Below are positions 59,064-63,826 of a stretch of DNA of 64,000 nucleotides, piece after piece. The notes under the pieces were generated by a model, which did not search any database, was not told the DNA's origin, and saw only the letters and a list, made by a program, of their open reading frames with translations. Source of the DNA: Deltaproteobacteria bacterium (GTDB lineage Bacteria; Myxococcota; UBA727; VGSZ01). Within the stretch, counting starts at the first letter, position 1. Each line of letters begins with the position of its first letter. The position numbers and the translations under genes were made by a program. The stretch lies in NCBI GenBank assembly GCA_016874845.1, contig VGSZ01000003.1, positions 3,146-67,145 of the forward strand, written 5' to 3'.

Positions 59064-59099
59064 CACGAGGCGGCCTGCGGGCCGCCTCGTGCGTTCTTT
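59064..59099 (+). terminator. Rho-independent terminator after groEL (12-bp GC-rich stem, 4-nt loop, T-rich tail)
   Basis: CACGAGGCGGCC-TGCG-GGCCGCCTCGTG followed by CGTTCTTTG. It lies 26 nt after the groEL stop. Confidence 0.6.
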
Positions 59100-59205
59100 G
59101 GGGGCCGCTCACGCCCCGCCGCGCGTTGCCCCGGTCTGCCGCCGTCACTATGGTCATCGACCACGCCAGCGCCCAGACCGACGACGACGCACGAGGAACT
59201 CCGCG

Positions 59206-60861
59206 ATGCCCGAGCAGCTGCCGCGCACCCTCGGCCGCTATACGCTGCTCGAGCCGCTGGGGCAGGGCGGCATGGGGCAGGTCTATCTGGCCCGCGTCGA
59301 CGGCGCCCACGGCCTGCAGAAGCGCTGCGTCGTCAAGACCATGCACGCCGACCGCGCCGACGACGAGGGGCAGGTGCGCCGCTTCCTCGACGAGGCGCGC
59401 CTCGCGATGCAGCTGTCGCACAAGAACATCTGCCCGGTCTTCGACGCCGGCGACTTCGACGGCGTCTTCTATCTGGCCATGGACCTCGTCGACGGCGTCG
59501 ACCTGCGCGCGCTGTGGGCGGCCGCCCTCGCCGCCGGCCAGCCGCTGTCGCCGGCGCTCGCGGCGTTCGTCGCCGTCGAGCTGCTCGAGGGCCTCGACTA
59601 CGCCCACCGCGCCACCGACGTAGAGGGCAAGCCGCTGCGGGTGGTGCACCGCGACGTCTCGCCCCACAACGTCATGGTCGGCGTCGAGGGCGGCGTGCAC
59701 CTCATCGACTTCGGGCTCGCGTTCTCTACGACCAAGCTCGAGAAGACCGACGCCGACGTCGTGCACGGCAAGGTCGCCTACATGTCGCCCGAGCAGGTGC
59801 AGGGCGCCGAGCTCGACCGCCGCGCCGACGTCTTCGCCGCCGCCGTCGTCATCTACGAGCTGTTCGCCCATGAGCGGTTCTACGAGGGGCTGTCGCAGCA
59901 GCGGGTGCTGACGACGGCGGCCGAGGGGCGGTTCCTGCCGCGCGCCTGGAAGAAGCTCGAGGCGCCGCTGCAGAAGATCCTGCGGGCCGCCCTCGACGCC
60001 GACCCGAAGAAGCGCACGTCGTCGGCGGGGAAGCTCGCCGACGAGCTGCGTGCCTGGGCCGCGTGTACGGGTCTGCACGCCGACGCGGCGCAGCTGCGCG
60101 CCACGCTGCGCGCGTTGTTCGCCGACCGCGTCCGCCTCGCTGGCACCGAGCGCTCCACCGAGGCCAGCGCCGCGGCCTCGCGCTCCACGCGCGCGGCGCC
60201 GGCGCGCGAGCCCACGGCGTCGGCGACCGGTCACCGCGACGCGGCGCTGCGTGAGCTGCCCACCCGCGGGCGCAGGGGGTCGCCCCGGCCAGCCGCCCCC
60301 GCCGAGCCCACCGTTGTCTTCGCCGGCGCCGGCGACCCGGCGCACGACGACGACGACCCGTCGCCGCCGCCGCTGGCCAGCGCGTCGCCGGCCAGGACCC
60401 GGGTGCCGTCGCTGGCGTCGTCGGCGTCGTCGGCCGCCGCGCCCCGTCGGGCCGAGCCCGCCGCGCCGCCTGCGCGGGAGCCACGCGCCGACGTCGGCGT
60501 GGTCGTCAAGCAGCCGCTCGCCGCTGCCGGGGCGCAGCCGCCGCGCAAGCGACGGTCAACGACGGACTCGGTGTGGCGGGACGCGGCGCTGGGCTTCGGG
60601 CTGGTGCTCATCTTCGTCGTGCTCGTCGCCGTGGCGCCCTGGCAGAAGGGCGCCCCCCGCGAGCGCAAGCAGGCGCTGCCGCCGAAGTCGCCGGCGACGA
60701 CGAAGGTGGCCTACGTGCAGCGCTGGTGCCCGGACCTGCCGTGCCTCGTCGAGCTCGGCAAGCTGCCCGAGCTCGACGCCCTCGATGAGTCCGCATCGCC
60801 GTCGTCGTCGCCCGCGCTCGGCGCCGTGAACGGCTGCTACCTGTCGTGCCTCGGCCGCTGA
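59206..60861 (+). CDS. Eukaryotic-like Ser/Thr protein kinase with disordered linker, one C-terminal TM helix and Cys-containing periplasmic tail
   Basis: Gly loop LGQGGMGQVY. Catalytic Lys in VVKTM. HRDVSPHNVM (catalytic loop). DFGLA. AYMSPE. TM LGFGLVLIFVVLVAVAPW. C-terminal ...QRWCPDLPCLVELG...NGCYLSCLGR. 551 aa. Confidence 0.85.
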   Translation: MPEQLPRTLGRYTLLEPLGQGGMGQVYLARVDGAHGLQKRCVVKTMHADRADDEGQVRRFLDEARLAMQLSHKNICPVFDAGDFDGVFYLAMDLVDGVDLRALWAAALAAGQPLSPALAAFVAVELLEGLDYAHRATDVEGKPLRVVHRDVSPHNVMVGVEGGVHLIDFGLAFSTTKLEKTDADVVHGKVAYMSPEQVQGAELDRRADVFAAAVVIYELFAHERFYEGLSQQRVLTTAAEGRFLPRAWKKLEAPLQKILRAALDADPKKRTSSAGKLADELRAWAACTGLHADAAQLRATLRALFADRVRLAGTERSTEASAAASRSTRAAPAREPTASATGHRDAALRELPTRGRRGSPRPAAPAEPTVVFAGAGDPAHDDDDPSPPPLASASPARTRVPSLASSASSAAAPRRAEPAAPPAREPRADVGVVVKQPLAAAGAQPPRKRRSTTDSVWRDAALGFGLVLIFVVLVAVAPWQKGAPRERKQALPPKSPATTKVAYVQRWCPDLPCLVELGKLPELDALDESASPSSSPALGAVNGCYLSCLGR

Positions 60862-60895: not shown

Positions 60896-63826
60896 TCATG
60901 CGCCGGGGCGGAAGGCGTCGCCGAAGCCGAGGTAGGTCGTCACCGCGACGTGCAGGCCGATGAGCACGACCATGAACACGGCGATCACGACGTGGAAGAC
61001 CAGCCACAGCCGGAACACGCGCTTCAGCTTGGCGTACAGCGCGATCTGAGTCTTCGCCCACGAGATCTTCAGCACCGACTCCTTGAAAAGGTCGAACTCG
61101 CCCTGGTCGTCGAAGTGCGTGCGCGCGCCCTCGATGCTCTTCAGGAGCTGCTTGCGCGCCGGCGGCTCGCGCAGCATCGCGCCGACGACGGTCTTCTCCG
61201 CCGGCTGCGTCTTCGCCAGGTCGAAGATGCGCGTGACCTCGGCGACGTTTTTTGTGCGCTGCATGTGTGGGGTCAGCACCTTCTCCATGTCGGAGACGCG
61301 CTCGCGGATCTCGGCGACCGCGAGGATCTTGCCCGCCTGCGCCGGCACGAGACGGAACAGGAAGCGACCGAAGATGCCGGTGCCGACGACGACGGTCAGC
61401 GCGATCCACGTCCAGACCGCCAGCAGGTTGTTGACGAGGAACGCCGCGTGGAACGCGATCACCAGCGGGCTCATGATGCCGACGAACATGTGGAACGTCA
61501 GCCACGTGCGGATCGACGCCTTGCCCTTCAGCGGCCGCCAACGCTTGCGCAGCGCGTACAGGAAGTTCGCCAGCATGAACGTCGTCGCTGCGAGCCCGAC
61601 GCCGTGGCCCCACAGGCCCGACGGCTTCAGCAGGTCGTGCAGCGGCGACTCCTCGCGCTCCTCAAGCGGCAGCCAGTAGTACTCGCGCCCGATCAGCACG
61701 AGACCCATCAGGATCGACACGCCGACGGCGAACAGCGTCAGCGCCAGTCGACGCCGGCCCTTCTCTTCGAGCTCGGCCTTCGACGGCCGGTTACGGGTGC
61801 CGAAGGCGCTGCGCTCGTCGCCCTGATAGCGCCGGGTCTGCACGCCCACGGCGGTCAGGAAGCCCGACGGCAGCTCGCCACCGACGCAGACGATCACGTC
61901 GTCGTTGCGCAGCCGGGTCTCCTTGCGGCCTGCGACGGCGGCGAGGCTCGCGCTCGCGCCGGCCGAGGGCGCCTCGACTCCGTCGACGCTCTGGGCGCGG
62001 CCGTGGCCCACCACGCGCGAGATCGAGGACGACAGCCGGGCGCTCACCTCGCGGACGCGGGTCGCCGGCGCCGGCATCGGGTCGTCGGCCTCGGGCACCG
62101 TCGTCGCCGCGGCCTCGACCTCCGCCGGCGATGGGGCCGGGCGGCGGCGCGCGCCGCTCAGCTCGTCGAGGATCCGCGCCCGGAATGAGCCGGTGATGTT
62201 CAGGTCGCGCTTCTGCGTCGACGCCGAACGCGCCGCCTTCGCCTCGCGCACGTCGGCCCCGCTGCGCGAGTCCCACACGACGGTGCGGGCGTTGCGGACG
62301 TCGCCGTCGCCCGCCCCCGGCGGCTTGCGGTCCGCGAGCGCGTCGCGGGCGGCGGCGGCGTCGAAGACGACGGTGGCGCGGTCGTGGATCGGCCCCTTGC
62401 GATCGGGAAGCGCGGCGATCGCGGCGCGCAGCGGGTCGGGGATGGCCTGAGCGCCGAAGGCGCCTACCGCGTCGTCCCCGGCGTCGCCGTCGCTGGCGTT
62501 GACCGGGCGCGTGGGCGGCTGCGCCGACGATGGCGCGACCCCGCGCACGCCGGGGTCGTGCTCCTCACGCCGGGGCGCCTTGTCGGCCGCGCTCGAGCGG
62601 CTCGCCGGCGCCTTCTCGGGCTTGTCGCCGGCGGGTGCGAGGCGGATGTGGCGCGGCTCGATGGCGCTGACCTCGGTGTTGAACAGCGCCTTGACGCGGC
62701 CGTCGTCGATGAGCGCGGTGATGCGCTCGCGGTTGCGCGGCTTGACCTTGCCGAAGCCCGCCTGCCGGTATGAGATCGTGACCTTCGCGGTGCTCTCCTC
62801 AGCGAGCTGGATGGCCGCCTCGACAGCGGAGTCGCCGCCGCCGACGACGAGTACGTTGCGGTCGTGGTACTGCTCGGGGTCGATCAAGCGGTAGACGACC
62901 TTCGGCAGGTCCTCGCCGTCGACGCCGAGCTTGCGCGGGCTGCCCCGCAGGCCGATGGCCAGCGCCACCGCGCGACACGGCACGCGCTTGCCCTGCGCGG
63001 TGATGACGACGAGGCGCGGCGCCGTCCCTCCGATGCTCGTGACCTTCTGGCCCTCTTCGACGGCGACGCGGTTGGCCTTCACCAGCGTCCGCATCTCCTC
63101 AAGCAGCTCCTCCTTCGACAGCAGCGAGCGACCGAAGGCGCCGTAGTTCGGCATCACGATCTGCTCGGACATCACGACCTTGCCGCGCGGGTAGTGGGCG
63201 ACGGCGCCGCCGAGCGTCTCCTGCTCAAACACCCGCACGGTCAGGCCCTGCTCCTTCAAGGCCGCCGCCGCCGCGATCCCCGCCGGGCCCGCGCCGACGA
63301 CGACGACGTCGACACCGCCGTTCTCGGCGTCGCTCTTCTTCAGGCGCTGCTTCAGCACCTTGCCAAGCACAAGGCCCTGGCGCAGCGCGTTCTTGATGAG
63401 GCCCATGCCGCCGAGCTCGCCGATGATGTAGACGCCCGCGCGGTTGGTCTCGAACTGCTCGTCGACGTCGGGCAGGTCGACACCGCGCTCGGCGGTGCCG
63501 AACACCAGCTTGATGGCGCCCACCGGGCACTCCACCGCGCAGCGCGCGTGACCGATGCAGTGGGCCGCCTCGACCAGCGTGGCGACGCCGTCGACGACGC
63601 CGATGATCTCGCCCTCGGGGCAGGCCTTGATGCAGCTGAAGCTGCCGACGCACAGGGTCGGATCGATGACCGGGTGCAACGACAGCGGCACCGTCTGCCC
63701 TTCGGCTACCGCCAGCCGCAGCTGCTCGGCGCCCTTCTGCTCCTGCACGCTGCGGCGACGGAACAACACCGCCGTCACGACGGCAAGCACGCCGAGCACC
63801 AGCAGGGAGAGGGACGCCTCCAACAT
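60896..63826 (-). CDS. Multidomain redox fusion protein: 2x[4Fe-4S] ferredoxin + FAD/NAD(P)-binding oxidoreductase + long disordered linker + polytopic C-terminal membrane domain with conserved His
   Basis: Ferredoxin motifs CVGSFSCIKACP and CIGHARCAVECP. Dinucleotide folds VVVVGAGPAGIAAAAAL and VLVVGGGDSAVEAA. Late oxidoreductase strand DDVIVCVGGELPSGF. Then 5-6 TM helices (LTLFAVGVSILMGLVLIG...TFHMFVGIMSPLVIAFHAAFLV...LWLVFHVVIAVFMVVLIGL). The 976-aa single ORF has uniform GC3 bias throughout, including the linker. Confidence 0.7.
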   Translation of the reverse strand: MLEASLSLLVLGVLAVVTAVLFRRRSVQEQKGAEQLRLAVAEGQTVPLSLHPVIDPTLCVGSFSCIKACPEGEIIGVVDGVATLVEAAHCIGHARCAVECPVGAIKLVFGTAERGVDLPDVDEQFETNRAGVYIIGELGGMGLIKNALRQGLVLGKVLKQRLKKSDAENGGVDVVVVGAGPAGIAAAAALKEQGLTVRVFEQETLGGAVAHYPRGKVVMSEQIVMPNYGAFGRSLLSKEELLEEMRTLVKANRVAVEEGQKVTSIGGTAPRLVVITAQGKRVPCRAVALAIGLRGSPRKLGVDGEDLPKVVYRLIDPEQYHDRNVLVVGGGDSAVEAAIQLAEESTAKVTISYRQAGFGKVKPRNRERITALIDDGRVKALFNTEVSAIEPRHIRLAPAGDKPEKAPASRSSAADKAPRREEHDPGVRGVAPSSAQPPTRPVNASDGDAGDDAVGAFGAQAIPDPLRAAIAALPDRKGPIHDRATVVFDAAAARDALADRKPPGAGDGDVRNARTVVWDSRSGADVREAKAARSASTQKRDLNITGSFRARILDELSGARRRPAPSPAEVEAAATTVPEADDPMPAPATRVREVSARLSSSISRVVGHGRAQSVDGVEAPSAGASASLAAVAGRKETRLRNDDVIVCVGGELPSGFLTAVGVQTRRYQGDERSAFGTRNRPSKAELEEKGRRRLALTLFAVGVSILMGLVLIGREYYWLPLEEREESPLHDLLKPSGLWGHGVGLAATTFMLANFLYALRKRWRPLKGKASIRTWLTFHMFVGIMSPLVIAFHAAFLVNNLLAVWTWIALTVVVGTGIFGRFLFRLVPAQAGKILAVAEIRERVSDMEKVLTPHMQRTKNVAEVTRIFDLAKTQPAEKTVVGAMLREPPARKQLLKSIEGARTHFDDQGEFDLFKESVLKISWAKTQIALYAKLKRVFRLWLVFHVVIAVFMVVLIGLHVAVTTYLGFGDAFRPGA

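Follow-up and report, generated by a model that had tools for sequence, protein, structure and literature searches.

The 976-residue protein described here is probably a cytoplasmic-membrane redox protein which, judging from its sequence, would take electrons from NAD(P)H and relay them over FAD, Fe–S clusters and two haems b to an acceptor in the periplasm. It is encoded on the reverse strand at positions 60896..63826 of the 64-kb stretch of DNA that was analysed (the window), and all of its features given below by position lie on this strand. The original prediction had proposed a module running from NAD(P)H over flavin and FeS to a membrane cofactor, and this proposal is supported by an alignment of 71 fused homologues, in which every intramembrane His, every Fe–S Cys, H93 and the two dinucleotide motifs are conserved without exception. 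The topology signals place the N-terminus outside, followed by an anchor helix, a cytoplasmic catalytic part and a five-helix domain that ends outside.

A continuous gene with an insert

The ORF is a genuine, unbroken gene on which purifying selection acts. It runs uninterrupted from ATG to stop (976 aa plus the stop codon), with an in-frame GC3 of 0.92–0.98 that is even across every segment, the insert included, in agreement with the single ORF of uniform coding bias originally described. A mis-joined assembly had been raised at that time as a possible objection. However, two independent public assemblies encode the product (P0001) with 100% identity, more than 1,270 fused homologues exist, and the ORF is thus not a mis-join. 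An orthologue in L086 has 80% identity and a matching architecture; relative to it, the dN/dS is 0.31 over the whole ORF and 0–0.28 in the folded domains, i.e., purifying selection acts in this orphan lineage (the window copy and L086), as against 0.74 in the insert. This near-neutral rate, with the low complexity and very high GC of the insert, could be taken to mean that the ORF is an artefact, either a mis-assembled or frameshifted join of two genes or one in which the insert is non-coding read-through. We give this reading next to no credence: besides the identical assemblies, the orthologue of shared architecture, the fused homologues and the GC3 along the whole frame, inserts occur at the equivalent loop in several related lineages, and the flavoprotein strand that follows the insert is invariant and needed for a complete fold.

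The insert (aa 401–635, 61922..62626) interrupts the flavoprotein module at a hairpin loop, is rich in Ala, Arg, Asp, Pro and Ser, and has no Pfam match. In the AF2 model, residues 403–633 show a pLDDT below 50 and no secondary structure. The insert is missing from the majority of fused relatives, which are ~740 aa long vs. 976 aa here, and is variable among close relatives. On the model, this stretch of ~235 residues is best described as a disordered, clade-specific loop expansion, much as had been expected of an Ala/Pro/Asp/Arg-rich, probably disordered insertion of ~250 aa. It carries a conserved [IV]TGSFRA motif and could serve as a regulatory handle.

Anchor, Fe–S sites and flavoprotein module

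The protein begins with a membrane anchor helix (aa 1–22, 63761..63826) followed by RRR, with a peak Kyte–Doolittle hydropathy of 2.59 and a helical conformation in the AF2 model. This helix had gone unmentioned in the original prediction; a hydrophobic N-terminus with basic residues is found in all aligned homologues and also in the flavoproteins encoded by split genes. A dicluster-ferredoxin-like domain follows (aa 51–110, 63497..63676), which matches Pfam Fer4_10 at aa 51–101 with 30.2 bits (cut-off 25.5) and is identical in amino acid sequence to that of the orthologue (dN = 0). Two CxxCxxCxxxCP-type motifs had been claimed for this region. The motifs read from the sequence are instead C59-x2-S62-x2-C65-x3-C69-P70 (63617..63652) and C90-x2-H93-x2-C96-x3-C100-P101 (63524..63559), and the region holds only these six Cys residues. 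The Fer4-type match expected of a domain search was obtained, whereas the eight-Cys set of a complete dicluster is absent, S62 and H93 replacing the second Cys family-wide. Both motifs are non-canonical, each with three Cys. Among the 71 fused homologues, the Cys residues and Pro of motif 1 are invariant and S62 is kept in at least 90%, while C90, H93, C96 and C100 of motif 2 are all invariant. When fused and split loci are taken together, the position of S62 in motif 1 is Ser or Thr in 141 of 142 motif instances, and the position of H93 is His in all 142.

The first part of a TrxR/YpdA-like FAD and NAD(P)H flavoprotein module spans aa 165–400 (62627..63334), with a Pyr_redox_3 match at aa 175–391 (E = 2.6e-36) and a pLDDT mostly of 84–96 in the AF2 model. 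Its two dinucleotide (GxGxxG/A) motifs, GAGPAG at aa 178–183 and GGGDSA at aa 329–334, are invariant in the 71 fused homologues, and the pyridine-nucleotide oxidoreductase with two dinucleotide folds is thus confirmed. The last strands of the module lie beyond the insert, at aa 636–680 (61787..61921), where the columns N641-D642...G649-G650-x2-P653 are likewise invariant in these homologues. The strand NDDVIVCVGGELPSGF (aa 641–656) aligns with what immediately follows aa ~397 in the insert-free relatives of ~740 aa; the last strand is indeed displaced downstream as predicted, by ~240 rather than ~300 residues. Flavoproteins encoded by split genes terminate at this segment.

Among solved structures, the bacillithiol disulfide reductase Bdr/YpdA (7a7b) comes nearest, with E = 2.4e-21 in the sequence comparison and E = 8e-16 (TMt 0.54) in the Foldseek comparison of folds; the next are TrxR-like ferredoxin–NADP reductases, which work reversibly. 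Both dinucleotide motifs are common to these best matches. The module here differs from YpdA/Bdr in being membrane-anchored, fused to Fe–S and membrane domains, and split by the 235-aa disordered loop. Membership in the YpdA family (TIGR04018) was rejected, the score being 131.4 bits vs. a cut-off of 339.9. Cys14 in the first GxGxxG motif of S. aureus YpdA (GGGPCG) matters for activity; in the alignment to 7a7b, it corresponds to Ala182 of GAGPAG. By sequence, the flavoprotein appears to lack a redox-active Cys and would perform no disulfide chemistry.

The membrane domain and known systems

The C-terminal membrane domain (aa 685–976, 60899..61774), putatively of PCC3/PCC4-IMP type, is modelled with a pLDDT of 92.6 and a pTM of 0.82. 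Hydropathy and AF2 agree on five TM helices, at about aa 692–716, 741–760, 772–795, 801–825 and 936–965, so that of the five to six helices originally proposed, five are found and a sixth is not. The His residues proposed to lie inside helices, H779, H793 and H945, do sit within hydrophobic helices. A fourth intramembrane His, H959, had been overlooked, and the four His form two H-x13-H pairs. TM3 (aa 772–795, 61442..61513) carries W775-x3-H779-x13-H793, and TM5 (aa 936–965, 60932..61021) carries W941-x3-H945-x13-H959. All six of these residues are invariant both in the 71 fused homologues and in 27 stand-alone membrane-domain proteins with 23–55% identity, which is the conservation that an alignment of C-terminal homologues had been suggested to test. 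TM4 (aa 801–825, 61352..61426) carries T816-G817-x2-G820-R821, in which G817, G820 and R821 are invariant; the motif reads T816-G817-I-F-G820 here, and Ser is the consensus at its first position in the stand-alone proteins. Between TM4 and TM5 lies a cytoplasmic bundle of four helices in the AF2 model (aa 830–935, 61022..61339; dN/dS 0.26), which is present in all family members and is poorly conserved. The cytoplasmic loops hold 22 Lys and Arg residues and the periplasmic loops 3, and therefore both H-x13-H helices run from inside to outside.

At E ≤ 1e-3, the membrane domain matches 1,890 representative clusters, some fused and others stand-alone (~290 aa), and a profile search returned more than 7,100 proteins of ~290 aa, mostly stand-alone; the stand-alone homologues are 285–310 aa long. 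No Pfam or NCBIfam model scores above threshold over the membrane domain, and in this sense the earlier failure to match the protein to a named family holds. Sub-threshold matches were obtained to Ferric_reduct, DUF4405 and Ni_hydr_CYTB, the last in 10 of 28 family members. The Ferric_reduct (PF01794) match is confined to aa ~744–822, with 22.3–23.4 bits vs. a cut-off of 28; it matches 11 of the 28 members, none significantly (best E = 6.7e-5). By fold, the best relevant match is the E. coli superoxide oxidase CybB, and FdnI is also matched, these matches being weak.

The membrane domain appears to carry the signature of the PCC3/PCC4 IMP, a likeness drawn from motifs, helices and the published description, in which this IMP is a five-TM protein with W-x3-H-x13-H and SGxxG motifs and two predicted haems b (He et al. 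2017, PMC5566968). The likeness extends to the length of ~290 aa, to the placement of W-x3-H-x13-H on TM3 and TM5 and of [S/T]GxxG on TM4, and to the clusters in which both the IMP and the relatives of our protein occur, where a porin-like protein and multihaem cytochromes of very large size are also encoded. In PCC4 subgroup II, an Fe–S gene adjoins the IMP gene (PMC5566968). In contrast, the published IMPs are stand-alone, whereas the domain here is joined to an NAD(P)H flavoprotein whose dicluster motif is unusual, and in other phyla the two are encoded side by side. The published IMPs are also clustered with porin and multihaem cytochrome c genes, whereas the window copy has no such cluster. 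No paper describing a flavoprotein link to a PCC3/PCC4-type membrane protein was found in the literature.

Other systems share parts of this arrangement. MsrQ-like and PepSY-like proteins are bacterial di-haem membrane proteins with fused or clustered cytoplasmic NAD(P)H modules which supply extracytosolic redox partners (Méheust et al. 2021, 10.1101/2021.01.07.425746). They differ in belonging to another membrane family, in using a PF00175 dehydrogenase and in having flavinylated partners rather than multihaem cytochromes. NOX/FRE proteins (SpNOX, CsNOX5) resemble the present protein in combining cytoplasmic NAD(P)H, flavin, two stacked haems b with bis-His ligation on TM3 and TM5, and an outside acceptor. 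However, NOX spans the membrane six times, carries its dehydrogenase domain (FNR-type) at the C-terminus and contains no Fe–S, whereas the present protein combines a five-helix membrane domain with two Fe–S sites and a TrxR/YpdA-type flavoprotein placed N-terminally. Compared with the ferric reductase domain, a 105-aa cytoplasmic insert separates TM4 from TM5, and the Pfam score is below cut-off. STEAP metalloreductases combine six TM helices and a single haem with a membrane-spanning FAD and a domain like F420 reductase, and no sequence relationship was detected between them and the 976-aa protein. In pathway position, between metabolism and periplasmic or extracellular carriers, the protein is comparable to CymA, ImcH, CbcL, CbcBA and Listeria Ndh2/EetAB. 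These oxidise quinol or reduce a dedicated quinone, whereas the present module would draw on NAD(P)H directly and cross the membrane on haems b.

Gene neighbourhood and proposed electron path

Of 70 usable genome loci, about 60 have a same-strand ORF with 20 or 30 CxxCH motifs after the fusion gene, usually with a 10-CxxCH ORF next, and the called genes abut or overlap. Most Myxococcota relatives have a 20- or 30-haem cytochrome c gene directly downstream of the fusion, and the closest paralogous clade (57–66% identity), which also bears inserts, has cytochrome–porin–fusion–cytochrome operons. One Bacteroidota/Ignavibacteria-type subfamily encodes the two halves separately: at all 39 informative metagenome loci, a gene for a Fer4-flavoprotein comes after that for the stand-alone membrane protein; its product has 40–46% identity to the N-terminal part of the window protein, and two multihaem cytochrome genes come next. 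A separate, well-characterised membrane protein without conserved His would have spoken against the original prediction. The separate protein that was found, an uncharacterised one, retains the His residues, and its gene adjoins that of a matching Fe–S flavoprotein. The window copy is an orphan, parted from this neighbourhood: no ORF with at least two CxxCH motifs occurs in the 64-kb window, no multihaem cytochrome is encoded on the contig of the orthologue, and the Acidobacteriota homologues are likewise orphans. For the window gene, a cytochrome c is thus no more than a candidate acceptor, and the acceptor is encoded elsewhere or is a different one.

In the path that we propose, with cofactors, direction, donor specificity and acceptor all predicted, NAD(P)H would reduce FAD in the flavoprotein, and FAD would pass electrons to two Fe–S clusters on the motif of six Cys, one His and one Ser, which may be [3Fe–4S] clusters or [4Fe–4S] clusters with non-Cys ligands. 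The electrons would then move to a cytoplasm-side haem b (putative ligands H779 and H945), to a periplasm-side haem b (H793 and H959), and on to a periplasmic acceptor. In most relatives, this acceptor would be the 20- or 30-haem cytochrome c encoded directly downstream, as part of a porin–cytochrome conduit to the cell surface. The family may thus provide a quinone-independent NAD(P)H input, or an electron-overflow, module for extracellular electron transfer. More tentatively, and with slightly less than even confidence, we suggest that the Fer4-flavoprotein and the five-TM di-haem protein constitute a new inner-membrane class for this process, a quinone-independent NAD(P)H:multihaem-cytochrome c transmembrane oxidoreductase. 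If so, it would act as a "NOX for cytochrome wires" that supplies conduits of 20 to 60 haems across Myxococcota, Bacteroidota and related phyla, and the quinone coupling proposed for the PCC3/PCC4 IMP would need revision.

Outward export of electrons from NAD(P)H would be expected to dissipate the membrane potential, which counts against the proposed direction. The PCC3 clusters of iron-oxidising bacteria, which include a like membrane protein, are also thought to carry electrons inward. By analogy, extracellular electrons might pass through multihaem cytochromes, the haems and the Fe–S sites to the flavoprotein and reduce NAD(P)+ there; the reducing power would then come from Fe(II), humics or a partner cell. 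The reversible ferredoxin–NADP reductases among the closest structures would suit such a flow. We nevertheless regard it as quite unlikely, since reducing NAD(P)+ (about −320 mV) from haem-level potentials would be uphill, and inward flow would oppose the inside-negative membrane potential with no energy-coupling element visible. Moreover, the hosts of the fused and split forms (Myxococcota, Bacteroidota and Ignavibacteria) are mostly organotrophs, and the published PCC3 clusters of Fe(II)-oxidising bacteria, for which inward transport was proposed, are described without a flavoprotein (PMC5566968). That work suggested quinone coupling for the IMP and a role in Fe(II) oxidation, and the fold matches include two quinone-reactive proteins, CybB and FdnI, as the sub-threshold Pfam matches include Ni_hydr_CYTB. 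The membrane domain could accordingly be a quinone-reactive di-haem cytochrome b, and the whole protein an NAD(P)H:quinone oxidoreductase, or a link between the quinone pool and a periplasmic cytochrome with the flavoprotein as a side input. This appears very unlikely, as those fold matches are weak, no quinone-site motif was identified, and the constant pairing of the membrane protein with the NAD(P)H–flavin–Fe–S module (39/39 loci, plus the fusion) would provide a complete donor chain in which quinone has no part.

The orphan copies raise a further alternative, in which the outer haem, as in an NADPH oxidase or ferric reductase, would directly reduce a small periplasmic or extracellular acceptor. 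Candidate acceptors would be O2 (to superoxide), Fe(III) chelates or a soluble shuttle, with no multihaem cytochrome involved. The cytochrome-free surroundings of the window copy and its orthologue, the recurrence of orphans in Acidobacteriota, the purifying selection that persists in the orphan lineage, the weak Ferric_reduct matches and the resemblance to CybB all fit this alternative. However, the closest paralogous clade resides in cytochrome-containing operons, the conserved residues of the periplasmic loops are unaltered in the orphan copy, and partner genes may lie elsewhere in this incomplete MAG, so that we hold it to be unlikely and retain the path from NAD(P)H to a periplasmic acceptor as the preferred reading. 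The genes that flank the window copy are a kinase gene and a divergent gene. The former, a Ser/Thr kinase gene on the forward strand (59089..60861), is convergent with the ORF as originally noted, and 34 bp separate the two stop codons.

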